Shown here: positions 4,214 to 13,505 of the stretch, one piece after another
How positions within the stretch are numbered: position 1 is the stretch's first letter
Layout: each line of letters opens with the position of its first letter
Assembly: GCA_001790095.1 (NCBI GenBank)
Contig: MGBH01000001.1
Location: 690,001 to 722,000 of the forward strand
Reading direction: 5' to 3'
DNA length: 32,000 nt
Source of the DNA: Candidatus Saccharimonadota bacterium
Lineage (GTDB): Bacteria; Patescibacteriota; Microgenomatia; UBA1406; GWC2-37-13
The notes under the pieces: generated by a model
What the model was told of the DNA's origin: nothing
Seen by the model: the letters and a program-made list of their open reading frames with translations, nothing else
The model's database searches: none
Translations under genes and position numbers: made by a program

Positions 4214-5749
4214 TTAAGTTGCCAAGTAACTTATAATACTTAATACACCCCATCCTGTTGCTCCACTATTCGCTATGCCACTACTGCTTGTTACATATGA
4301 AGGTCCTGCAATGTCGATGTGAATCCATTTTGCCTTTACCACAAACTCGCCAATAAATAAAGCTCCTGTGATAGCTCCACCCCATCCACGGCTTGAAACA
4401 TTCTTTAAATCTGCAATATCGCTTTTTAGCAGTTTGAGATATGGCTTGTATAAAGGCAGCTGCCATACCTCTTCTCCCTCTTCTTGAGTTATTTTTATAA
4501 AACGTTTTGTAAAGGTGTCGTTGTTACCAAAAAGGCCTGCGATATTTTCACCAAGCGCTACCTTACAAGCACCTGTAAGAGTCGCTAAATCAATTATTTC
4601 ATCTGGTTGTATGTATTTTTCCGCATATGCAACTGCATCGGCAAGCGTAAGACGACCTTCTGCGTCAGTATTTATGACCTCTGCAGTTTTACCATTGAGA
4701 CCACGTACCACATCGCCTGGTTTGAGAGCTTTTCCAGACGGCATATTTTCACATGCAGGTAAAATACCATATATTTCACCATAAGAAGATATATTAACTA
4801 TTTTATCCAAATGTGCTAAAATTTTAAACACACCCAATACTGTTGCCCCCCCCGCCATATCAGATTTCATCTCTTCCATACCTAAGGATGGTTTGAGGGA
4901 AATTCCTCCTGAATCAAATGTGATTGACTTACCAATAAGACAAATCTTTTTTGCTTTATCCGCAGTAGCCTTGACGAAGGCAGATGTAGCCGACTTTGGA
5001 TTATATTTCAATATGATGAATTTCGGTTCCCTTTCGCTTCCTTTTGCAACTCCCAAAAAAGCTCCCATACCAAGCCGTTCGCACTCTTGTCTATCTAGTA
5101 CCTGTGCGGTGATTGTCCCTTGAGACTCCTTTTCAATATTAAATGCTTCTTTCATAAGAGTCTCGGGATGTACAAAAGATGCTGGTTCATTGACTAAATC
5201 ACATGCAGTAGTAACACCTTTTACTATGTATTCTCCATACCGTATCCCTTGTTCAAATTCTGGAGAAAAATCTTTTTCACTATATACATACATATCTTGT
5301 ACTATGTGATTCTTTTTCTTTTGTTCTTTGCTCTTATATTTATCAAACCGATAATTTCCCATATAAAATCCTATTGCACAATTTTTACCTAAGTCAAAAA
5401 AATCATCTCCCATAATGGGAATATAATAAAGATGAATTGATGAGCTTTTTAAGGACGAAGCCAAACGTACTGCATTTGCTAACCCGTCTCTTATTGAGAC
5501 AAGGGGGCGTTCTTTTGATTTACCTAAACTATAAATAATGATATTTTCATATACGTCTCCACCTTCAACTATGATTGACTCATCTTTTTTGCCTGTAAAT
5601 TCGTGGCGTTTTATTTTTTTTGCAATTCTTTCGCCAGTTAAAATATTAAGTCTCTTTAGAAAGATATCCCCTTTTAAGGCGTCCTCGTATGTGAAGTAAA
5701 TAAGTGTATTTCCTTTATGAGGAAAAGTTTTTTTTTCCAAATAAATCAT
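4214..5749 (-). CDS. pepA: Leucyl aminopeptidase (peptidase family M17)
   Basis: The canonical M17 signature NTDAEGRLTLADA is present, together with TFDSGGISLKP and MKSDMAGGA metal-ligand blocks. The 511-aa length fits the family. Confidence 0.92.
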   Translation of the reverse strand: MIYLEKKTFPHKGNTLIYFTYEDALKGDIFLKRLNILTGERIAKKIKRHEFTGKKDESIIVEGGDVYENIIIYSLGKSKERPLVSIRDGLANAVRLASSLKSSSIHLYYIPIMGDDFFDLGKNCAIGFYMGNYRFDKYKSKEQKKKNHIVQDMYVYSEKDFSPEFEQGIRYGEYIVKGVTTACDLVNEPASFVHPETLMKEAFNIEKESQGTITAQVLDRQECERLGMGAFLGVAKGSEREPKFIILKYNPKSATSAFVKATADKAKKICLIGKSITFDSGGISLKPSLGMEEMKSDMAGGATVLGVFKILAHLDKIVNISSYGEIYGILPACENMPSGKALKPGDVVRGLNGKTAEVINTDAEGRLTLADAVAYAEKYIQPDEIIDLATLTGACKVALGENIAGLFGNNDTFTKRFIKITQEEGEEVWQLPLYKPYLKLLKSDIADLKNVSSRGWGGAITGALFIGEFVVKAKWIHIDIAGPSYVTSSSGIANSGATGWGVLSIISYLAT

Positions 5750-5816: not shown

Positions 5817-6821
5817 TCAGGTGATAAAATCAAGATTTATTTGTTGCCATAAAGTATTTAGTCCTTTGTTTTCTTGTGCTGCATACATAATTTTTTTTGG
5901 GACATCAAAGATAACTGAGGCAACTGTTGAGGTCTCTTTTGTCCGGTAAACCGATGAATCATCGTTGGTTGTATAAAGAAGAAGGTCTTTCAAGACGTTA
6001 ACAGTATGTACCTGCGAAAGAACTGATCGGATATGTTGATAGCGTCCTAGGCTTTGCATCTCTTCTTTATATTGTTTCTCTACTTCCTTAAGTGTTCCAA
6101 TATAGTGGTTAGTGTGTACGTAGTTTTTGTTTGTTTCAAAGAATTCGTAACGCCGTGCGGAACTTTCAATACTTAAGACCTTTGTCTTCTTTGACATGTT
6201 GTAACAATACCCTGCGGCTCGCCTCAATTTGGGGAATTCTTCTTTTACTTCTTCAAGACTTTCTCGAGATGAAAGCCAACGAGCGACGATTTGTTTTGGA
6301 ATCCCAATTTGATAATCAGTGTGATACAGTGAGTTAATCGCCTGTATCATACCGCTTGAATTAATACAAATGGTGCCTCCGGATATAAGTCCTGCCAACC
6401 CTAGTTCAACTACCGTTTTATTATCAAGGGTCCGCTTCAATATAAAAAAATACTCCCCTGTCCATACGTCCCAATCTTCGTTGTGTCCAACGATGTATCC
6501 AGATCCATTTTCTTGTTTCAAAAAGATTGATGTACATCTTTCAATATGTTGTTTTTCCATGACCTCATCAATACAATGAAATACCCACAATTTTTCAAAG
6601 GGAATTTTTGCGCCGTTAGCCAAACCATTAATTTCATCTATATACTGAGGAAATACTTTTTTTGTAACATCTAAAAAAGGTAGAGATTTTTTGATTAATA
6701 TATCCCACGGTGCGGGCAAATGAAATGCTTTGATATAGGCCGTTTGCATCTTTGCAGTCAATTGGCCCAACAAATACCCCGCTTCATAATGGTCCTTTGC
6801 ATGAACCTCAATTATTTTCAT
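5817..6821 (-). CDS. Peptidase C45 family protein (acyl-CoA:6-APA acyltransferase-like, Ntn-type hydrolase/acyltransferase)
   Basis: The N-terminal block EVHAKDHYEAGYLLGQ, the candidate nucleophile Cys in ERCTSIF and the GHNEDW block are characteristic of the C45 family. Confidence 0.65.
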   Translation of the reverse strand: MKIIEVHAKDHYEAGYLLGQLTAKMQTAYIKAFHLPAPWDILIKKSLPFLDVTKKVFPQYIDEINGLANGAKIPFEKLWVFHCIDEVMEKQHIERCTSIFLKQENGSGYIVGHNEDWDVWTGEYFFILKRTLDNKTVVELGLAGLISGGTICINSSGMIQAINSLYHTDYQIGIPKQIVARWLSSRESLEEVKEEFPKLRRAAGYCYNMSKKTKVLSIESSARRYEFFETNKNYVHTNHYIGTLKEVEKQYKEEMQSLGRYQHIRSVLSQVHTVNVLKDLLLYTTNDDSSVYRTKETSTVASVIFDVPKKIMYAAQENKGLNTLWQQINLDFIT

Positions 6822-6900
6822 ACTATATAGAAGATTGTATCATTTTGTCGCCTCAAATTATTCTTATTTTATTGATGAATATCAATCTTTTAAATTGGTC

Positions 6901-6930
6901 TTGACATTTTGCAAAAATAGGTAATAATGT
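6901..6930 (+). promoter_or_regulatory. Sigma70-type promoter candidate for the ATP-grasp operon
   Basis: A perfect TTGACA lies at 6901-6906. An AT-rich -10 region (gGTAATAATg) follows about 16-18 nt downstream. The ATG is at 6949. Confidence 0.45.
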
Positions 6931-6948
6931 AATAGCTTTCAAAAAAAA

Positions 6949-8394
6949 ATGAAAAGTGATCAAGAGGATAAGCCTCCAAGCAAACCCTCCCTAAACAATT
7001 TACAGAAAAAAAAGAAAAACGGTTACGGTTCAAGCAAAGATGAACTTCTTGTATATGTCTATAATGTGGTTGAAGACGAATGGTCATATATCTCAACCAT
7101 CACTGATAAGGAAGAACGAAAAAAAGAAATTGAGCGAGACAATAACACTGCAGAATGTTATCTTTTTGCAAATGCGGATGAAGACGAATTTGTTTACATT
7201 TCGCCCAAACCAATTACACCAAATTTCAAAAAATATTTTCAGAATTTAGTCGGAGCAAAAAAGATTGAGATATTGGTTCCAAAAAAAGATACCGGCCTCA
7301 TATGTAAAGATCTTTACAATGATATGGCTGTCTTTCACAAATTAGTCAATAAAGCAAAACGTTATAAACGTCTTACTATCGTTAGCTATGCCGCCTCCCC
7401 TCAGTTGTACGAATTGAAGGAACGTCTTGAAAAACGTGGGTTAAATGTCTATATTCCCGAGGCACCAACGATTGATTGTTCATGGACGGTCAATTTTTTT
7501 GGAAGTAAATCAGGAATACGGCAACTTGCACAACAAAGCAGTGCTCTTGAACCAGATTTCATCATGCCAGAAGGCCTCATATGTGTCGGAAAGCTCGACG
7601 CTGCACGTATAGCGGCAAATAAATTTATTAAGGATAACGGCGTAGTTATAAAAACTAATAAAGGTTCAAGCGGTAATGGAGTGCTTATCTTCCGAGACGG
7701 GCAGCTCCCTAAAGATTATAAAAAATGTGAACGCTCCATATATTCGTACCTTAAGCAAGATGAGTATTGGGAACGCTACCCCATCATCATTGAAGATCTT
7801 ATCCCAGTCAATTTCAGTAACGGAGCAAGTAGTTTCCCCAATATTGAATTTAAAATCCAAAAAAGCGGAAAGATCGATATGTTGTATTTTTGTACGATGA
7901 AGATCACTGAGGAGGGAGAGTTCTATGGACTAGATATGCATGAGGACGTCATCAATGAACGTCTTGCAGCTCGAATCATTGATACTGGATATTATATAGC
8001 TGAACGTTACAGCGCAGAGGGATACAGGGGTCATTTTGACATCGATATGATCGCAACCAAATACAATCAAGTGTTTGTAAACGAATCAAACACCAGAAAT
8101 ACGGGGGGTACAGATGTATACAAAGTCGCACTTGAACTCATAGGAAGAGATTTTTTTTCCGATTCATACGTGATAAGCCGAAGCAAATTTCCTCTCCATA
8201 ATGTCCCTCGCCCGTCCTTCCCCACTGTGTTAAAAAAACTTCAACCTCTCCTATTTAACAAAAAAACAAAGGAGGGCATCGTTATTAGCTCTGAAAATAT
8301 CATCAAACAAAAAGAACTTATCTATATAATATTTGGAAATTCAAAACGAAGAGCATATCAAATCGAACAAGATATGCGTTCGCTTCTTCATTAA
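6949..8394 (+). CDS. ATP-grasp ligase with ~200-aa pre-ATP-grasp N-domain (paralogue 1; PGM1-like peptide-ligase family is a tentative placement)
   Basis: ATP-grasp motifs are present: VVIKTNKGSSGNGVLIF (Lys strand plus Gly loop), IIIEDLIP, and GHFDIDMI...VFVNESNTRNTGGTD (Mg/ATP ligands E-x-N). It is clearly paralogous to the next gene. Confidence 0.7.
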   Translation: MKSDQEDKPPSKPSLNNLQKKKKNGYGSSKDELLVYVYNVVEDEWSYISTITDKEERKKEIERDNNTAECYLFANADEDEFVYISPKPITPNFKKYFQNLVGAKKIEILVPKKDTGLICKDLYNDMAVFHKLVNKAKRYKRLTIVSYAASPQLYELKERLEKRGLNVYIPEAPTIDCSWTVNFFGSKSGIRQLAQQSSALEPDFIMPEGLICVGKLDAARIAANKFIKDNGVVIKTNKGSSGNGVLIFRDGQLPKDYKKCERSIYSYLKQDEYWERYPIIIEDLIPVNFSNGASSFPNIEFKIQKSGKIDMLYFCTMKITEEGEFYGLDMHEDVINERLAARIIDTGYYIAERYSAEGYRGHFDIDMIATKYNQVFVNESNTRNTGGTDVYKVALELIGRDFFSDSYVISRSKFPLHNVPRPSFPTVLKKLQPLLFNKKTKEGIVISSENIIKQKELIYIIFGNSKRRAYQIEQDMRSLLH

Positions 8395-8398
8395 ATGC

Positions 8399-9772
8399 AT
8401 GACTAAGAAAATACCTGTATATATCTACAATTCTGTGGAGGATGAATGGCAATACATAAGCGGTTTAAAAAGTAAAAAAGAACAAAGTATTCGAACTACA
8501 CTTTCAAATGCTTTTGCAGATTGTTATTTATTTTCAAACTCCGGAAGGGCAGAATTTATTTTTATCTCCCCTATTGCAATTTCCCCGGATTTTATTTCTT
8601 ATTTTCAGACACTCACCAATTCGCATGTACATGTTCTCACTCCTCACATGATTACTCCATTTATTTCGCTCAATCTCATCTTGGATAAAAAAGTTCTAAA
8701 ACAGCTTATTTCTTTTGCACTTCCCCAAGGGGGTATTGAACTATATCCTTATGCAACAAGTAAACAAATATACATGCTGAAAAAAACTCTTGAAAAAAAT
8801 AATATTTTTACCTCTTTTCCTGAGTCTCCTGATGAGAAAAATTATTGGACTGTTTCCGCTTATGGTTCAAAAACAGGGTTTCGGGAATTGGTCAGCGAGA
8901 TGAATAAAAAAAAAGATTGTCCAGTTAAGATGCCTTATGGCAAAGTCTTTAATAAAAAATCCCAGGCTATTGACTTTGCAGCTAAAATAGTGCTAAAACA
9001 GGGAAAAGCTCTTCTTAAAATTGCGAAAGGATCTGGTGGGCATGGTACGTTTGTCCTGAAAAGAAACGATTTAGGAAAAAACCATACGTTAATAAAGCTA
9101 AACATAAAAAAACTGCTTGGAGATGACCTCTTATGGAAAAAAAATAGAATGGTTGTTGAGGAATATATAAAAACGGATCCAAATAATCCCGTGCAGTTTC
9201 CAAGCATCGAATGTAGGATTGATGAACATGGAATAAACCATATACTTTATCACTGCGCCATGCTTGTCTCGGGGGCGGGAAGTTTTTATGGAATGGAAGT
9301 GGGGAGGGAAGCAGTTCCATCCTTTATAGTCCGAAAGATGAATGCTATCGCAAGAAAAGTAGGTGATGTATATGCATTAAATGGATATAAGGGTCATTTT
9401 GATATTGATATGATCTATGGAAAAGATGGGAAACTATATGTGAATGAGTCAAATGTACGAAATACCGGAGGAACAGATGCATTTAAGCTCTGTCTTCACC
9501 TTCTGGGTAAACGTCTCATGCAAAAATCATTTATCCTCAGTAAATTTGTCGATTTTAAAACCAATACAAAACTTCCTAACTTTAACCAGATTTTAAGCTT
9601 CGTTAAACCAATCCTATACTCAATGAAAACAAAAAGTGGATTGATAATCAGTTCACAAGCTTCCCTTTACGAGCGATCTCTAACATACTTTATAATCGCA
9701 CGTTCAAAGAAAGGGGCATATAAAATGGAGAAAAAACTGTTACAAATTATTCAAACCAGTATCACAAAATGA
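8399..9772 (+). CDS. ATP-grasp ligase with pre-ATP-grasp N-domain (paralogue 2)
   Basis: It shares collinear blocks with the upstream gene: VYIYNSVEDEWQYIS, FISPIAISPDFISYFQ, LLKIAKGSGGHGTFVL, and GHFDIDMI...LYVNESNVRNTGGTD. I took the start at the MTKKIP ATG (8399), 4 nt after the upstream TAA (8392-8394). The listed ATG at 8333 would overlap the upstream gene by 62 nt. Confidence 0.7.
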   Translation: MTKKIPVYIYNSVEDEWQYISGLKSKKEQSIRTTLSNAFADCYLFSNSGRAEFIFISPIAISPDFISYFQTLTNSHVHVLTPHMITPFISLNLILDKKVLKQLISFALPQGGIELYPYATSKQIYMLKKTLEKNNIFTSFPESPDEKNYWTVSAYGSKTGFRELVSEMNKKKDCPVKMPYGKVFNKKSQAIDFAAKIVLKQGKALLKIAKGSGGHGTFVLKRNDLGKNHTLIKLNIKKLLGDDLLWKKNRMVVEEYIKTDPNNPVQFPSIECRIDEHGINHILYHCAMLVSGAGSFYGMEVGREAVPSFIVRKMNAIARKVGDVYALNGYKGHFDIDMIYGKDGKLYVNESNVRNTGGTDAFKLCLHLLGKRLMQKSFILSKFVDFKTNTKLPNFNQILSFVKPILYSMKTKSGLIISSQASLYERSLTYFIIARSKKGAYKMEKKLLQIIQTSITK

Positions 9773-10800
9773 AAAAAAATATCACCATTGCACTTCTTTA
9801 TAACGTCCGCCATACTTTTCCCGATCCGAAAGACCCCAAAACCTTTCTTGAAACAGATTTTGACGATCCGGAGACTACCCGCTTGCAGATAAAACACCTA
9901 AAGAAACTCGGGTATAAAGTCGTTCCGATCGAGGCTAATGATAAAGCCTATCTAAAATTATATAGATATAGGGCTCAGATCGATTTAGTATTTAATGTAT
10001 CTGAAGGCATGCATGGAAATGATCGTGAAGCACAGATACCAGCTATGCTTGAGATGTTACAAATCCCCTATACCGGTTCTCCTCCTCTTGCTCAAGCGCT
10101 CATTCTGGACAAAGCAAAAACAAAAGAAGTTCTTATAGCAAATAATGTTTCAACACTCCCCTTTCAACGCTTCACCGATGCAAATCAGGCACTAAAAAAG
10201 GGTCTTATCTATCCCTTGATGGTAAAACCTGTGTCTGAGGGATCATCTGCTGGAATAACAAATAAAAGTGTTGTACATACGCTGAGTGAGTTGCGCAAAC
10301 AGATAAAATTCATCAGAAAAGTATTTCATGAAGATGCTCTTGTTGAGCCATATCTTGAAGGTCGTGAGTTCTCAGTAGCCATGCTTGGCAACCCCCCTCA
10401 AATACTTCCAATCCTTGAATCTGATCATTCTATGCTCCCAAAAAAATATCTCCCTTTTGACTCCCTTGAGGTCAAATGGTTTTATGAGTCTGAAACAAAT
10501 GGACAACACCTTAAATGCCCTGCTCTCAATATTTCAACCCGATTAGAACGGCAAATACATACCATTTGCCTTGACGCATGGAAGGCTTTAGGAATCAAAG
10601 ATTGGTGTCGGATCGACATACGTTGCGACAGGAAAGAAAATCCTTTTGTCCTTGAGGTAAACTCGCCCCCCGGATGCATGCCCCCTGAACACGACGTTGC
10701 ATCCTACTTCCCTATGATCGCCCGCGCTGCAGGTATCCCATATGAGAGACTTCTTCAGAAAATCATATCGGAAGCACTTAAAAGGTATAAAAGGTTATAA
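9769..10800 (+). CDS. D-alanine--D-alanine ligase family ATP-grasp protein (non-canonical N-terminus)
   Basis: Ddl-like core blocks are present: MLEMLQIPYTGSPPLAQALILDKAKTK, LMVKPVSEGSSAGI, EFSVAMLG and CRIDIRCDRKENPFVLEVNSPPG. The N-terminus (IALLYNVRHTFPDP...ETDFDDPET) lacks the GG-S-E-EVSL block of cell-wall Ddl. Its ATG overlaps the upstream TGA as ATGA (9769-9772). Confidence 0.7.
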   Translation: MKKNITIALLYNVRHTFPDPKDPKTFLETDFDDPETTRLQIKHLKKLGYKVVPIEANDKAYLKLYRYRAQIDLVFNVSEGMHGNDREAQIPAMLEMLQIPYTGSPPLAQALILDKAKTKEVLIANNVSTLPFQRFTDANQALKKGLIYPLMVKPVSEGSSAGITNKSVVHTLSELRKQIKFIRKVFHEDALVEPYLEGREFSVAMLGNPPQILPILESDHSMLPKKYLPFDSLEVKWFYESETNGQHLKCPALNISTRLERQIHTICLDAWKALGIKDWCRIDIRCDRKENPFVLEVNSPPGCMPPEHDVASYFPMIARAAGIPYERLLQKIISEALKRYKRL

Positions 10801-10809
10801 GTGCTTATA

Positions 10810-10818
10810 TGCTATAAT
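10810..10818 (+). promoter_or_regulatory. Extended -10 promoter element TGCTATAAT
   Basis: An exact TGnTATAAT lies 17 nt upstream of the tRNA-like 5' fragment. The same 9-mer recurs at 23644-23652 (+) and 18007-18015 (-). Confidence 0.45.
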
Positions 10819-10835
10819 TGATAATTGAAGTTTTT

Positions 10836-10853
10836 GGGCGCGTAGTTTAATGG
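10836..10853 (+). pseudogene. Truncated/decayed tRNA copy (5' 18 nt identical to tRNA-Ile)
   Basis: GGGCGCGTAGTTTAATGG is identical to 10975-10992, but what follows cannot form the D, anticodon or T arms. Its upstream promoter-like sequence is also a diverged copy of the one before tRNA-Ile. Confidence 0.5.
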
Positions 10854-10947
10854 CCCCACAAAAAGCTTTCCATTCCCGAGGCCTACGTCCTCGCATCATG
10901 GTGGCGCTTTAGCGGGGCAAGCAGTATTGTCTTTTCAGCTCAAATTT

Positions 10948-10956
10948 TGGTATAGT
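10948..10956 (+). promoter_or_regulatory. Extended -10-like element TGGTATAGT upstream of tRNA-Ile
   Basis: A TGnTATAgT element lies 18 nt upstream of the tRNA 5' end. It aligns with the TGCTATAAT copy at 10810. Confidence 0.35.
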
Positions 10957-10974
10957 TTATCTGTTTTCGTTCTT

Positions 10975-11046
10975 GGGCGCGTAGTTTAATGGTAAAACAG
11001 TTCTCTGATAAAGAACAGAGCGATGGTTCGATTCCATCCACGCCCA
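10975..11046 (+). tRNA. tRNA-Ile (anticodon GAT), no encoded CCA
   Basis: I folded a 72-nt cloverleaf by hand. The acceptor is GGGCGCG/CACGCCC (one C-A mismatch at 6:67). The D arm is GTTT-AATGGTA-AAAC. The anticodon arm is GTTCT-CTGATAA-AGAAC. The T arm is GATGG-TTCGATT-CCATC. The discriminator A is followed by CTT. Confidence 0.85.
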
Positions 11047-11080
11047 CTTCGTCCCGCAAAGCGGGACTCAGTGTAAACAC
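11047..11080 (+). repeat. Conserved tRNA 3'-trailer element, copy 1 (two tandem hairpins)
   Basis: CTTCGTCCCGCAAAGCGGGACTCAGTGTAAACAC contains a 7-bp stem GTCCCGC/GCGGGAC with an AAA loop, then GTGT-AA-ACAC. It is near-identical to 21842-21876. Confidence 0.8.
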
Positions 11081-11138
11081 GATTACCACCAAAGCACAAG
11101 TAAGGTAAAGGTTTACCCTGAGGAACAAAGTGACCAAG

Positions 11139-11213
11139 GGACTCGTAGCTCAACGGTAGAGCGCTTCGTTTACATCGAAGATGTTGGGGGTTCAAATCCC
11201 TCCGGGTCCACCA
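11139..11213 (+). tRNA. tRNA-Val (anticodon TAC), CCA encoded
   Basis: The acceptor is GGACTCG/CGGGTCC (one G-U pair). The D arm is GCTC-AACGGTA-GAGC. The anticodon arm is CTTCG-TTTACAT-CGAAG. The T arm is GGGGG-TTCAAAT-CCCTC. The discriminator A is followed by CCA (11211-11213). Confidence 0.88.
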
Positions 11214-11229
11214 AACACTTAGGTATCCA

Positions 11230-11258
11230 TTGCCAACTTCTCTTAACCTCTCTATAAT
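11230..11258 (+). promoter_or_regulatory. Sigma70-type promoter candidate (TTGCCA-17-TATAAT), near-leaderless
   Basis: TTGCCA lies at 11230-11235, followed by a 17-nt spacer and TATAAT at 11253-11258. The ATG at 11268 is only 9 nt after the -10 element. Confidence 0.45.
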
Positions 11259-11267
11259 GAATATGAG

Positions 11268-13505
11268 ATGAAAAAGAACGTCCCGCTTTTCGCAAAAAAA
11301 TCAATTCATAACTTTTTTGAGGCAACTCTTAATTTATTTCTTTTCTTTCCCTATTTTTTTTCCGTCTCTACCCTCTTTAAGACTTTTTTCCATCCTTGGA
11401 AAAATATAATTACCAAAAAGACTGTGCGGGGTTTTTCTTTTAGCGAGCTTATGGGGCGCATATTTTTTAATCTTGTCTCACGTCTCATCGGGGCTTTTAT
11501 GCGCCTTTCTATTATCCTTTTTTATATGTTGTTTCAGTCCCTGTATGTCATATTTCTTCCCTTTATCATTGGTGTCTATTTTCTTTTATTACCTTTTCTT
11601 ATATGTATATATATACTTGAGAAGACAGAGGAGGAAAAAAAAGCTTCTTTCAAAGCAGTGTTTATTGCATCCCGCATGTTAAAACAAGAAAACTACCAGG
11701 CAGTTGAGAATTGGTTTGAGATGTACTATCAAAAGTATCTGCACAAAAAGGCATGGTGGAAATTGTCCAACCTTTTGACCATACCACCCCTTGCACGAGA
11801 TTGGGCTGTAGGATACACTCCCCTTTTAGATGAGTTTTCGCAGGATTTGACCAATGATACTTATCAAGCCCAGATGAAAAGCGTCATTGGGCGGTCAAAA
11901 GAAATCCAGCAAATACAACAAGCTTTGTTAAAGAATGAGGAGGCAAATGTGCTCATAGTTGGTGAAGAAGGTGTTGGAAAGCATACGATAGTAGATGCCC
12001 TTGCAAAAAAAATTTATGAGGGTCAAACCAACTCTGTCCTTGCTTACAAACGCATTTTGAAATTAAATCTGGAAAAAATATTGACCGTTTATACCGATAC
12101 TGAACAAAGAGAGAATTTTCTTGAAGATCTATTTCTTGAAGCTGCAACCGCCAAAAACACTATTCTTCTTATTGAAAACTTTGACAAATACGTAAGTTTC
12201 GGACAAGGGAGAATCGATCTTTCAACTTCTTTTGAAAAATACGGAAAAACTAGCACAATTCAATTTATCGGCATCACGTCTCCTTTTTTTTACCAACGCT
12301 TCATATTTGGCAACGATAAAGTAAACCGGTTATTCACTCGCATAGATGTACAGGAAATCTCACTTCAAGAGGCAAAACTCACACTTCTTGAAGCAGCGCA
12401 TCTTTTTGAGGAAAAAAATAAGGCCATCATCCCCTATGAGACAATTATTGAAACTATCGATAAAAGTGAGTTCTATATAACCTATATTCCTTTTCCAGAA
12501 AAAGCGTTTAATCTCCTTGATATGGCTTGCGCTTATGTAAAAAATACCAATTCTCAGACCGTCACTCCAAACATAATAAATATAGTCCTTTCGGAGAAAA
12601 CCCATATCCCAACCTCTCTGACGGGTGAGATGAAGAAGAAACTTATTACATTAGAACAACTTCTTGGGTCCCGTGTCATATATCAAACCGAGGCGGTACA
12701 AAAACTGGCTGGGGCTATGCGAAGATCTTTCATACTACTTGGTAAGCGTAGAAAACCTCTGGCCAGTTTCCTTTTTCTTGGACCAACAGGTGTTGGAAAG
12801 ACCGAAACTGCAAAAGCACTTGCAGATATATTTTTTGGCAGTAATAAATTCTTACTTCGGTTTGACATGTCCCTTTATCAAACAACTGCAGATATAAAAA
12901 CACTGATTGGATCAATCGAATCAAGTATGCCGGGACTTCTCAGCAATGCAATACGGGAAAATCCATATGCCGTTCTCTTGCTTGATGAGATAGAGAAAGC
13001 AGACAAAGACCTTCTCAACATATTCTTAACATTGGTTGATGAAGGATACTTTACTGATGGATTCGGCAAAAAGGTAGATTGTAAAAACCTCATCATTATC
13101 GCAACGAGTAACGCTGGTGCCGATTATATTTATAAAAAACAAACCTCTCTAATTGCGTCGGTTAAAGAATCAGACCTCATAGATTATCTTGTCTCCCAGC
13201 ATCTTTTCTCTCCAGAATTCCTCAATCGCTTTGACGGTGTGGTAACATATCGCCCTGTCACTGAGCAATCCATCTTCACTCTCGCATCGAAGATGATTGA
13301 TACGATAAAAGAAACGATTTATAAGCTATATAAAATTCATATCACCGTCACTGATGAAACCTTGAAGAGTGTAGTTGCAAAAGGCTATAATCCTGCATTT
13401 GGTGCACGAAATCTTGAACGGGTTATCACCCAAGAACTGGAAGACAAGATAGCAAAGCTTATTCTTGAAGAAAAAGCGAAGGAAGGTGATACAATATCTT
13501 TATAA
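11268..13505 (+). CDS. Clp/Hsp100-family double AAA+ ATPase with a hydrophobic (membrane-anchor-like) N-terminal region
   Basis: In D1 the Walker A is GEEGVGKHT and the Walker B position reads ILLIENFD. In D2 the Walker A is GPTGVGKTE, the Walker B is VLLLDEIEKA, sensor-1 is ATSNAG, and FLNRFDG and GARNLERVI are also present. The first ~120 aa contain long hydrophobic stretches in place of a Clp N-domain. Confidence 0.8.
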   Translation: MKKNVPLFAKKSIHNFFEATLNLFLFFPYFFSVSTLFKTFFHPWKNIITKKTVRGFSFSELMGRIFFNLVSRLIGAFMRLSIILFYMLFQSLYVIFLPFIIGVYFLLLPFLICIYILEKTEEEKKASFKAVFIASRMLKQENYQAVENWFEMYYQKYLHKKAWWKLSNLLTIPPLARDWAVGYTPLLDEFSQDLTNDTYQAQMKSVIGRSKEIQQIQQALLKNEEANVLIVGEEGVGKHTIVDALAKKIYEGQTNSVLAYKRILKLNLEKILTVYTDTEQRENFLEDLFLEAATAKNTILLIENFDKYVSFGQGRIDLSTSFEKYGKTSTIQFIGITSPFFYQRFIFGNDKVNRLFTRIDVQEISLQEAKLTLLEAAHLFEEKNKAIIPYETIIETIDKSEFYITYIPFPEKAFNLLDMACAYVKNTNSQTVTPNIINIVLSEKTHIPTSLTGEMKKKLITLEQLLGSRVIYQTEAVQKLAGAMRRSFILLGKRRKPLASFLFLGPTGVGKTETAKALADIFFGSNKFLLRFDMSLYQTTADIKTLIGSIESSMPGLLSNAIRENPYAVLLLDEIEKADKDLLNIFLTLVDEGYFTDGFGKKVDCKNLIIIATSNAGADYIYKKQTSLIASVKESDLIDYLVSQHLFSPEFLNRFDGVVTYRPVTEQSIFTLASKMIDTIKETIYKLYKIHITVTDETLKSVVAKGYNPAFGARNLERVITQELEDKIAKLILEEKAKEGDTISL

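Follow-up and report, generated by a model that had tools for sequence, protein, structure and literature searches.

A three-gene ATP-grasp ligase operon of a Patescibacteria genome is a candidate for ribosome-independent synthesis of a short peptide

Three consecutive ATP-grasp genes form one predicted operon

The window analyzed here is a stretch of 32,000 nucleotides, positions 690001-722000 of the single-contig genome G000 (1,216,931 bp, 98% complete, 37% G+C), which belongs to a small-genome groundwater bacterium of the Candidate Phyla Radiation (CPR, Patescibacteria); the organisms of its closest homologues are named Roizmanbacteria. The subject is a run of three plus-strand genes in this window, referred to as g1, g2 and g3. 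A first-pass annotation made from the sequence alone had described them as three consecutive ATP-grasp genes, and the open reading frame (ORF) listing, the folds and the catalytic residues all agree with this description. g1 (6949-8394, plus strand) encodes 481 amino acids (aa) with disordered residues 1-28, a pre-ATP-grasp region and an ATP-grasp core, g2 (8399-9772, plus strand) encodes 457 aa from an ATG start at 8399, and g3 (9769-10800, plus strand) encodes a Ddl-fold ATP-grasp ligase of 343 aa, of a type designated 'LYN...DxDDP'.

The gene junctions are as tight as the first-pass annotation had stated. Read directly from the sequence, only the 4 nucleotides ATGC separate the g1 stop codon TAA (8392-8394) from the g2 ATG at 8399, and the ATGA at 9769-9772 overlaps the stop of g2 with the start of g3. 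A TTG start for g2 at 8333, which appears in the ORF listing, was rejected because it would overlap g1, and the 457 aa counted from the ATG at 8399 agree with the 454-456 aa of the g2 orthologues. The public gene call for g3 (P0001, 305 aa) uses a TTG start 38 codons late (window 9769-9882), which loses the conserved LYN...DxDDP N-terminus and masks the ATGA overlap with g2. The start of g3 was placed at 9769 because its orthologues measure 337-344 aa.

Upstream of g1 lies a divergent spacer of 127 nucleotides (6822-6948), common to g1 and to a minus-strand gene of the C45 family that starts at 6821. A promoter-like site on the plus strand (6901-6928) consists of TTGACA (6901-6906), 16 nucleotides and AATAAT; it is a consensus match only, at 11 of the 12 positions, and the top promoter-like match in 6700-11400. 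An Rfam search of the spacer found no riboswitch or leader RNA upstream of g1. At the downstream end the ligase genes are bounded by tRNA-Ile(GAT) (10975-11047, plus strand) and tRNA-Val(TAC) (11139-11213, plus strand), both detected by ARAGORN and by Rfam RF00005 (71.4 and 70.6 bits for the pair). With the 4-nucleotide gap, the ATGA overlap, one strong promoter-like site and tRNA genes at its end, g1-g2-g3 is a predicted single operon. No PADLOC defence model matched g1, g2, g3 or the C45 protein.

g1 and g2 are paralogues that resemble PGM1 and BesA

The proposal that g1 and g2 are paralogues holds: all motifs quoted for it are present in the translations, and the two proteins align at 34% identity across residues 32-478 (E 1.5e-88). 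The Pfam model PreAtp-grasp (PF18604) scored 21.1 bits on g1 and 18.7 bits on g2, both under its gathering cut-off of 27.5, and NCBIfam gave weak partial matches to BesA, LdmS and PRK06524. By sequence, the only solved relatives of g1 were PGM1 (3wvq, E 1.2e-6), the Streptomyces structure 8ynd and BesA, and a profile of 21 homologues matched PGM1 at E 7e-10 (hmmsearch). AlphaFold (AF2) models were built for g1 and g3, and the fold of g2 was taken from its paralogy with g1. In Foldseek, the g1 model (predicted local distance difference test score, pLDDT, 83; predicted template modelling score, pTM, 0.83) aligned over its whole length with 8ynd (E 7.6e-24), 3wvq (E 1.8e-22, template modelling (TM) scores 0.72/0.79) and the BesA structure 8yi6 (E 3.4e-22, TM 0.70/0.73), with TM scores of 0.66-0.79 overall, in agreement with the N-terminal pre-ATP-grasp region ascribed to both proteins earlier. 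The next structural class was LdmS (7r8q, E 4e-15), followed by PurK-type enzymes at E 1e-15 or weaker; the match to PGM1, 8ynd and BesA is seven orders of magnitude ahead of other ATP-grasp classes.

An alignment of 21 sequences (g1, g2 and 19 homologues) contains 69 invariant columns, including GHFD.D and ESN.RNTGGTD, and g2 shares every one of them. Because the invariant columns are retained in both proteins, g1 and g2 look catalytically intact, and the models and alignment together indicate that they are most likely intact PGM1/BesA-type ATP-grasp amide ligases. Orthologues were examined in a panel of 41 genomes, comprising G000 and 40 relatives (given by G numbers); all of these are kin, and counts over the panel are given without a statistic. 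Genome G003 encodes a g1 orthologue with 86% identity, and g2 has orthologues in G003 (54%) and G001. The public homologues of g1 and g2 are all named 'hypothetical protein', 119 of 120 are listed without a precomputed Pfam domain, and the named organisms among those listed are Roizmanbacteria, Microgenomates or unclassified Patescibacteria.

Other ATP-grasp affiliations were not found for the three ligases. The RimK-type domain PF08443 had no match in g1-g3 at E <= 0.01, and no RimK or graspetide family in Pfam or NCBIfam gave an above-threshold match. None of the three carries the Mur_ligase domain that is a trait of cyanophycin synthetase; the genome has five Mur_ligase_M genes, all at other positions.

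g3 keeps the catalytic residues of Ddl and has a different N-terminus

The first-pass annotation had assigned g3 to the Ddl family while noting that it lacks the N-terminal GG-S-E-EVSL block, and both statements are borne out by the domain score and by alignment with DdlB. g3 scored 106.7 bits against Dala_Dala_lig_C (PF07478, cut-off 24) and fell far under the cut-off of every NCBIfam Ddl equivalog model (for example 179.2 versus 243 for NF002378 and 146.1 versus 245.65 for TIGR01205). The AlphaFold model of g3 has a pLDDT of 90.7, and its top 50 matches in the PDB are all Ddl enzymes, aligned over the full length with TM scores of 0.66-0.86; for the best of them the TM scores are 0.72-0.86 at 21-29% identity.

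To compare individual residues, g3 was aligned with E. coli DdlB and five canonical Ddl proteins of relatives using MAFFT and also HMMER. K97, K144, S150, E180, K215, R255, D257, E270, N272 and S281 of DdlB correspond to K115, K153, S159, E200, K236, R281, D283, E296, N298 and S312 of g3, which also keeps the equivalents of DdlB E148 and S151. Across 29 g3 orthologues from CPR bacteria, Chloroflexota, Desulfobacterota and archaeal-labelled contigs, 54 columns are invariant, and the ten g3 residues numbered above are among them save E296 and S312 (the latter conserved in at least 90%). In a wider set of 61 g3 proteins from four contexts, E296 is either E or D, and S312 is invariant. The archaeal origin of some g3 copies, here and below, refers to bin labels (Aenigmatarchaeota, Bathyarchaeia).

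The substrate-facing elements differ from those of Ddl. g3 lacks the GGxSxExEVSL block with Glu15; instead, LYNxR is followed by a loop of 18 residues and by an invariant DxDDP that directly precedes helix 1. DdlB Tyr216 is replaced by the invariant Trp237 and Leu282 by the invariant Tyr313, and four extra residues precede the equivalent of Ser281. Of the two D-Ala substrates of Ddl, the first is bound at its alpha-amino group by Glu15 and the second at its carboxylate by Ser281. An acidic patch of g3 (D30, D32, D33) aligns just before helix 1, at the Ddl Glu15 site, and since this patch is present and Ser312 is kept, g3 most likely couples two free amino acids through an acyl-phosphate.

The candidate pocket residues of g3 are invariant in the 61 proteins with the sole difference at position 157, which is E in PGM1-linked copies and Q in others. 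Context-specific specificity residues were considered on this basis and dismissed, as a single differing column gives no handle on the substrate. The invariant pocket suggests that g3 probably runs one and the same reaction in all contexts. Publicly, members of the g3 family are named 'D-alanine--D-alanine ligase' or 'ATP-grasp domain-containing protein', and no description was found in literature on the family itself, on pairs of aminomutase and ATP-grasp genes, or on Ddl and racemase loss in Patescibacteria.

g3 probably is not the housekeeping Ddl

A check of the genome for a canonical ddl elsewhere found g3 to be the only Ddl-family gene. The first-pass annotation had allowed that g3 might be the sole functional cell-wall Ddl, and this was the reading of g3 that we took up first and then rejected as the main one, as the phyletic pattern, a clade of its own, coexistence with true Ddl and its occurrence on archaeal-labelled contigs all speak against it.

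When one genome of each GTDB species was scanned, 538 relatives of g3 were returned, the best 80 of which were used. The orthologues, with 54-75% identity, are spread over CPR bacteria, Chloroflexota and Desulfobacterota as well as archaeal-labelled contigs. The best 80 of the 538 relatives include proteins of 53-59% identity from Chloroflexia, Anaerolineaceae, Desulfobacterales (among them Desulfosudis oleivorans) and Desulfovibrionaceae, and bins labelled Aenigmatarchaeota and Bathyarchaeia contribute contigs with copies of 55-58% identity. All 79 g3 proteins placed in a quick maximum-likelihood tree fall into one clade with a Shimodaira-Hasegawa-like approximate likelihood ratio test (SH-aLRT) support of 99, apart from canonical Ddl, from a Ddl-like group termed DdlX and from the C-terminal portions of the fused ligases described below; the non-CPR and archaeal-labelled copies nest among Roizmanbacteria sequences. 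In a phylum sample of 401 evenly drawn Patescibacteria genomes, g3 is present at E <= 1e-60 in 12.

Over the 41-genome panel, a true Ddl is encoded in 12 genomes, either canonical (about 250-265 bits) or intermediate (125-170 bits, with two such genes adjoining murF or alr), and a g3 orthologue or a fused version of it in 19 (G000 counted). Both are found in 4 genomes (G012, G023, G026 and G036), Ddl alone in 8, the cassette alone in 15 and neither in 14. A complementary spread of g3 and true Ddl was considered and is not seen in these counts. G012 and G026 carry a canonical Ddl of about 250-260 bits alongside g3, and of the 14 genomes with neither, 10 are at least 92% complete and possess a MurF-like ligase without any PF07478 match. 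A MurF-like ligase is encoded in 40 of the 41 genomes. Of about 100 loci, only 2 have a mur gene no more than about 7 kb from g3. From these patterns, g3 probably represents a distinct orthologous family and not the housekeeping Ddl.

g3 is linked to exchangeable partners

The neighbours of g3 were tallied over 78 loci, with a partner counted if it lies within three genes of g3. A partner (ligase, MurL paralogue or aminomutase) was present at 58 of the 78 loci and at 8 of the 11 phylum-sample matches; the 20 partnerless loci are mostly non-CPR, and in CPR genomes g3 is nearly always next to a partner. Two PGM1-like genes stand beside g3 in G000, G003 and G001, and one in G004, G006, G026 and many more. 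DdlX, 25-28% identical to g3, is the neighbour in G008, G018 and G028 and is present in two copies in G012, and DdlX together with a PGM1-like gene accompanies g3 in G032, at loci L070 and L071 and at others. The same slot, which was seen directly in G005 and G014, is filled in these two genomes by one protein of about 820 aa whose gene adjoins a ClpC-like gene. This protein is a fused ligase whose N-terminal half is an L-amino-acid ligase (LAL; ATP-grasp_4 plus LAL_C2) and whose C-terminal half is Ddl-like, and it is also encoded in six further relatives (G002, G007, G023, G033, G036 and G040).

In other CPR classes, one deltaproteobacterium and one Bdellovibrionota bin, g3 is followed by a gene for a KamA-family radical-SAM aminomutase (191-493 bits to the AblA model), at times with a GNAT acetyltransferase and a second Ddl-like gene. 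The G000 genome has no KamA-like gene. No enolase-type dipeptide epimerase was found in it either: weak MR_MLE_C matches in ORFs of 424-428 aa are probably enolase. The linkage expected from the first-pass annotation thus stands in part. Relatives retain g3 together with at least one exchangeable partner, and the exact triad occurs only in the nearest relatives G003 and G001.

Several further neighbours were noticed at single loci. A gene for a C39-like peptidase stands ahead of the ligases in G032, and two ORFs (504 aa and 974 aa) without a Pfam match flank them in G004. At the Aenigmatarchaeota-labelled loci L112, L114 and L138, g3 lies between genes that by eye resemble GalT, glycogen-debranching enzyme and GH57.

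Peptidoglycan genes, MurL and a MurL paralogue

Among peptidoglycan ligases, the G000 genome encodes MurC, MurD, MurE and one divergent MurF-like protein (FolC is also present), and it has two MraY/WecA-family (Glycos_transf_4) genes, one of which accompanies murL and murD in the dcw cluster. Alanine racemase (Alr), Asp/Glu racemase and a class-IV aminotransferase (D-amino-acid transaminase) were not found by genome search. The only MurF-like gene (G000:C1:671150-672463, plus strand) lies about 18 kb upstream of the window; its product scored 174 bits against a cut-off of 288.6 and has about 120 residues predicted to form membrane helices in place of the N-terminal domain. G003, G004 and G006 possess such a membrane-type MurF-like protein plus a second, more typical one of about 420 aa, which is apparently missing in G000.

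A true MurL (G000:C1:357670-358974, plus strand, 434 aa, NF041275 313.9 bits) is encoded in the dcw cluster, with mraY (356614-357651) upstream and murD (358979-360211) downstream. MurL is an ATP/Mg-dependent one-way epimerase that acts on the C-terminal residue of the peptide (PMC5808125). The orthologues listed in the same paper are from Gamma- and Alphaproteobacteria and actinobacteria, with low-similarity sequences in cyanobacteria, a fungus and an amoeba, and CPR bacteria are not mentioned there (PMC5808125). Because MurL is present and MurI and D-amino-acid transaminase are absent, G000 probably makes D-Glu by the MurD2/MurL route, in which L-Glu is ligated and then epimerised, and weak matches in relatives suggest that this route may be general in the order.

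G000 also encodes an intact MurL paralogue of 466 aa (G000:C1:10337-11737, minus strand), located between genes for a GT8-like glycosyltransferase and a CNNM/CorC-type transporter. Members of its family (about 460-500 aa, without a Pfam match) occur in 8 of 80 g3 neighbourhoods, directly upstream of g3 or DdlX in 7 of the 8 and about 5 kb downstream on L112. The family gives a weak score of about 20 bits against the MurL NCBIfam model; profile alignment with true MurL (hhalign) gave a probability of 97.9% and E 5.8e-13 over 266 columns, with a GKDS P-loop-like motif and RWCxxCxKCA in common. Within the genus, orthologues of the paralogue with more than 50% identity were found in 4 of 5 g3-bearing genomes and in 0 of 3 fusion-type genomes. 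Two co-directional clusters, L143 (G033:C22:461-8843) and L144 (G023:C25:1886-10287), contain the fused ligase and the MurL paralogue together with an enolase-superfamily MR_MLE enzyme, a further ATP-grasp protein and a pyridoxal-phosphate enzyme resembling ornithine/diaminopimelate (Orn/DAP) decarboxylases; the G033 cluster additionally holds a divergent FemAB-like GNAT protein and the G023 cluster a weakly DegT-like protein. The enolase superfamily (MR_MLE) includes L-Ala-D/L-Glu dipeptide epimerases.

Genes flanking the ligase operon

The divergent operon reported on the minus strand, with its 127-nucleotide spacer and TTGACA, was recovered by domain models and by reading the sequence. It encodes a C45-family Ntn autoproteolytic acyltransferase/hydrolase (5817-6821, minus strand; NF040521 156.6 bits, PF03417 73.3 bits) and an M17 leucyl aminopeptidase (4214-5749, minus strand; PF00883 366.5 bits). 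The association of these genes with the ligases, also put forward by the first-pass annotation, is present at this locus and does not extend far beyond it. The C45 gene adjoins g1 in G000, G003 and G004 only, which limits the link to the genus. M17 is part of a conserved M17-CBS-PMT_2 block flanking the variable ligase slot, and the same block stands beside the fused ligase in G014 and beside DdlX plus g3 at L097. C45 and M17 were therefore rejected as obligatory partners. The M17 neighbourhood looks like family-level synteny and not a functional link, and C45 is a possible accessory partner of the ligases.

On the other side, a ClpB/ClpC-type double-AAA+ protein (AAA_2, ClpB_D2-small) is encoded at 11268-13505 on the plus strand. 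The first ~120 residues of this ClpC-like protein resemble several membrane helices, and its gene is the conserved right-hand neighbour of the ligase slot family-wide, in either orientation.

A model for stepwise peptide synthesis and its alternatives

We propose, with slightly better than even confidence, that g1-g2-g3 is an accessory, modular assembly line that makes a short peptide independently of ribosomes and of nonribosomal peptide synthetases (NRPS). Building on the gene structure, folds, conserved catalytic residues, split from canonical Ddl and linkage established above, we infer the substrates and product, the sequence in which the enzymes act and their role in the cell as follows. 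By Ddl chemistry, g3 would use ATP to phosphorylate the carboxylate of one amino acid, and the amine of a second amino acid would attack the acyl-phosphate to give a dipeptide. This step would be the constant core, in which the same two common amino acids are probably joined everywhere. g1 and g2 would each add one residue to give a tri- or tetrapeptide, or would make two alternative products. Ligases of the PGM1/BesA type are known to activate the carboxylate of an amino-acid-like substrate and to couple it to the amine of an amino acid or a peptide (Noike et al. 2015, cited in PMC9486568, for PGM1). An enzyme of the MurL-paralogue type may turn a residue into the D form after ligation, and trimming, transfer or recycling of the product may fall to the C45 Ntn hydrolase and the M17 aminopeptidase. 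The idea of the first-pass annotation that three ligations build a peptide thus persists as the most economical reading, in its stepwise and ribosome-independent form, and its other suggestion, modification of a protein C-terminus, has no specific support.

Several observations weigh against the assembly-line proposal. The order proposed for the three ligations is a guess. g3 is usually alone in Chloroflexota, Desulfobacterota and on archaeal-labelled contigs; these solitary copies imply that it can work without a neighbouring partner, so an assembly line may not fit the whole family. The MurL paralogue of G000 lies about 690 kb from the ligase operon, and the KamA-like link of other lineages is left unexplained in a genome that has no KamA-like gene. 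Finally, g3 is the only PF07478 match of a genome that encodes MurC, MurD, MurE and a MurF-like ligase and lacks Alr, glutamate racemase and D-amino-acid transaminase.

The last point leads to the strongest rival, a role in the cell wall, which we consider unlikely. Here g3 would make D-Ala-D-Ala or a variant of it, which the divergent, membrane-anchored MurF-like ligase would attach to the stem peptide, or it would build a side branch. Stem or cross-bridge residues would come from g1 and g2, and in place of the missing racemases the MurL paralogue would convert residues to the D form once they are ligated. Besides this gene content, the majority of Ddl catalytic residues are retained in g3, the true MurL between mraY and murD suggests that a 'ligate, then epimerise' solution for D-Glu already exists in the lineage, the MurL paralogue adjoins g3 or the fused ligase in many genomes, and the G033 and G023 clusters add epimerase-type and Orn/DAP-decarboxylase-like enzymes, with the FemAB-like transferase in G033. 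However, g3 is conserved at 55-58% identity on contigs labelled as archaeal, and archaea make no murein; it stands alone in Chloroflexota and Desulfobacterota, occurs in just 12 of the 401 Patescibacteria, almost never has mur genes nearby (2 of about 100 loci), shows no complementarity with Ddl over the 41 genomes (4/8/15/14), and has replaced both the Glu15 block and Tyr216. A more specific version, in which a g3-type ligase, swappable ligases and the MurL paralogue constitute a racemase-independent route that ligates L-amino acids and then epimerises them into a D-containing cell-wall peptide (a MurF substrate or cross-bridge) in Roizmanbacteria and other CPR bacteria without Alr, glutamate racemase and canonical Ddl, strikes us as quite unlikely; if true, such a cassette would be a second alternative peptidoglycan-precursor branch beside MurD2/MurL.

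It is also improbable, to a considerable degree, that the cassette makes simple proteinogenic dipeptides for storage, osmoprotection or starvation, in the manner of L-Asp-L-Met by LdmS, with C45 and M17 releasing the amino acids. LdmS is an L-amino-acid ligase encoded in an operon with a peptidase (PMC9486568) and is structurally akin to g1 (7r8q, E 4e-15), the peptidase genes at our locus diverge from the common 127-nucleotide spacer, and the invariant g3 pocket suggests common substrates. In other lineages GNAT acetyltransferase and KamA-like genes accompany g3, and a KamA-like and GNAT pairing makes the compatible solute N-epsilon-acetyl-beta-lysine. Yet three different coupled ligases point to reactions in series and not in parallel, conservation of the ligases does not extend to the peptidase partners, and Rfam detected no riboswitch or regulatory leader upstream. 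Modification of a protein or ribosomal peptide, in which the ligases would extend a terminus or side chain like RimK, LysX or PGM1, appears very improbable. PGM1 is described as a peptide ligase (Noike et al. 2015, as cited in PMC9486568) that joins an acid to a ribosomally made peptide (as cited there), and the conservation of g3 across domains at 54-75% identity would fit a macromolecular substrate. Arguing the other way, no conserved gene for a precursor peptide or carrier (LysW) was noticed among ORFs of at least 70-80 aa in about 100 loci, no RimK or graspetide match exceeded its threshold, and the acidic patch and Ser312 of g3 fit free amino acids as substrates.

Taken together, ATP-grasp-based, NRPS-independent peptide synthesis with a link to D-amino-acid peptide chemistry is a plausible role for the cassette. 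Metabolic reconstructions that treat the g3 family as cell-wall Ddl are probably wrong. A small CPR genome spends about 3.9 kb on these three ligases, and a version of the cassette is retained in about half of the panel, 19 of 41 genomes. The identity of the g3 product would establish the function of this family, of which hundreds of members have been detected, would also show the role of the MurL-like paralogues, and bears on how bacteria without recognisable racemases obtain cell-wall D-amino acids. The g1-g3 enzymes are small and soluble-looking, which makes them easy to express.

Comparison with known systems

g1 and g2 have the same pre-ATP-grasp plus ATP-grasp architecture as PGM1 of pheganomycin (3wvq/3wvr), 8ynd and the L-propargylglycine--L-glutamate ligase BesA (8yi6). 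They differ from these enzymes in being only 14-18% identical to them and below threshold for Pfam PreAtp-grasp, in having no amidinotransferase, precursor-peptide or halogenase/alkyne genes nearby, in residing in a CPR bacterium and not an actinomycete, and in having a Ddl-like ligase as partner. g3 has the same three-domain fold as E. coli DdlB (2dln; EC 6.3.2.4) and the Van-type variants, and the shared ATP-, Mg- and acyl-phosphate-handling residues indicate that its chemistry is most likely the same. Unlike Ddl, g3 is unlinked to mur, ftsQ and alr, coexists with true Ddl, occurs on archaeal-labelled contigs and forms its own clade.

RizA/RizB of rhizocticin and BacD of bacilysin are ATP-grasp L-amino-acid ligases for small peptides, and together with LdmS of Staphylococcus aureus they provide precedents in which di- and tripeptides are made without ribosomes or NRPS by stand-alone ATP-grasp ligases. 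All of them belong to the LAL class (ATP-grasp_4/LAL_C2), which is represented here only in the fused ligase of relatives, and in contrast to RizA/RizB and BacD no warhead-biosynthesis genes are present. LdmS, like this cassette, is encoded beside a peptidase (PMC9486568). Regarding RimK/LysX systems, no small conserved carrier gene was noticed among ORFs of at least 70-80 aa near the cassette. The MurD2/MurL route of Xanthomonas oryzae differs in that the paralogue here scores about 20 bits to the MurL model and is not adjacent to g3 in G000, and the cassette includes no Mur ligase; the logic proposed for the cassette, in which residues would be ligated first and the C-terminal one then epimerised at the expense of ATP, is the same as in that route (PMC5808125, PMC8788868).

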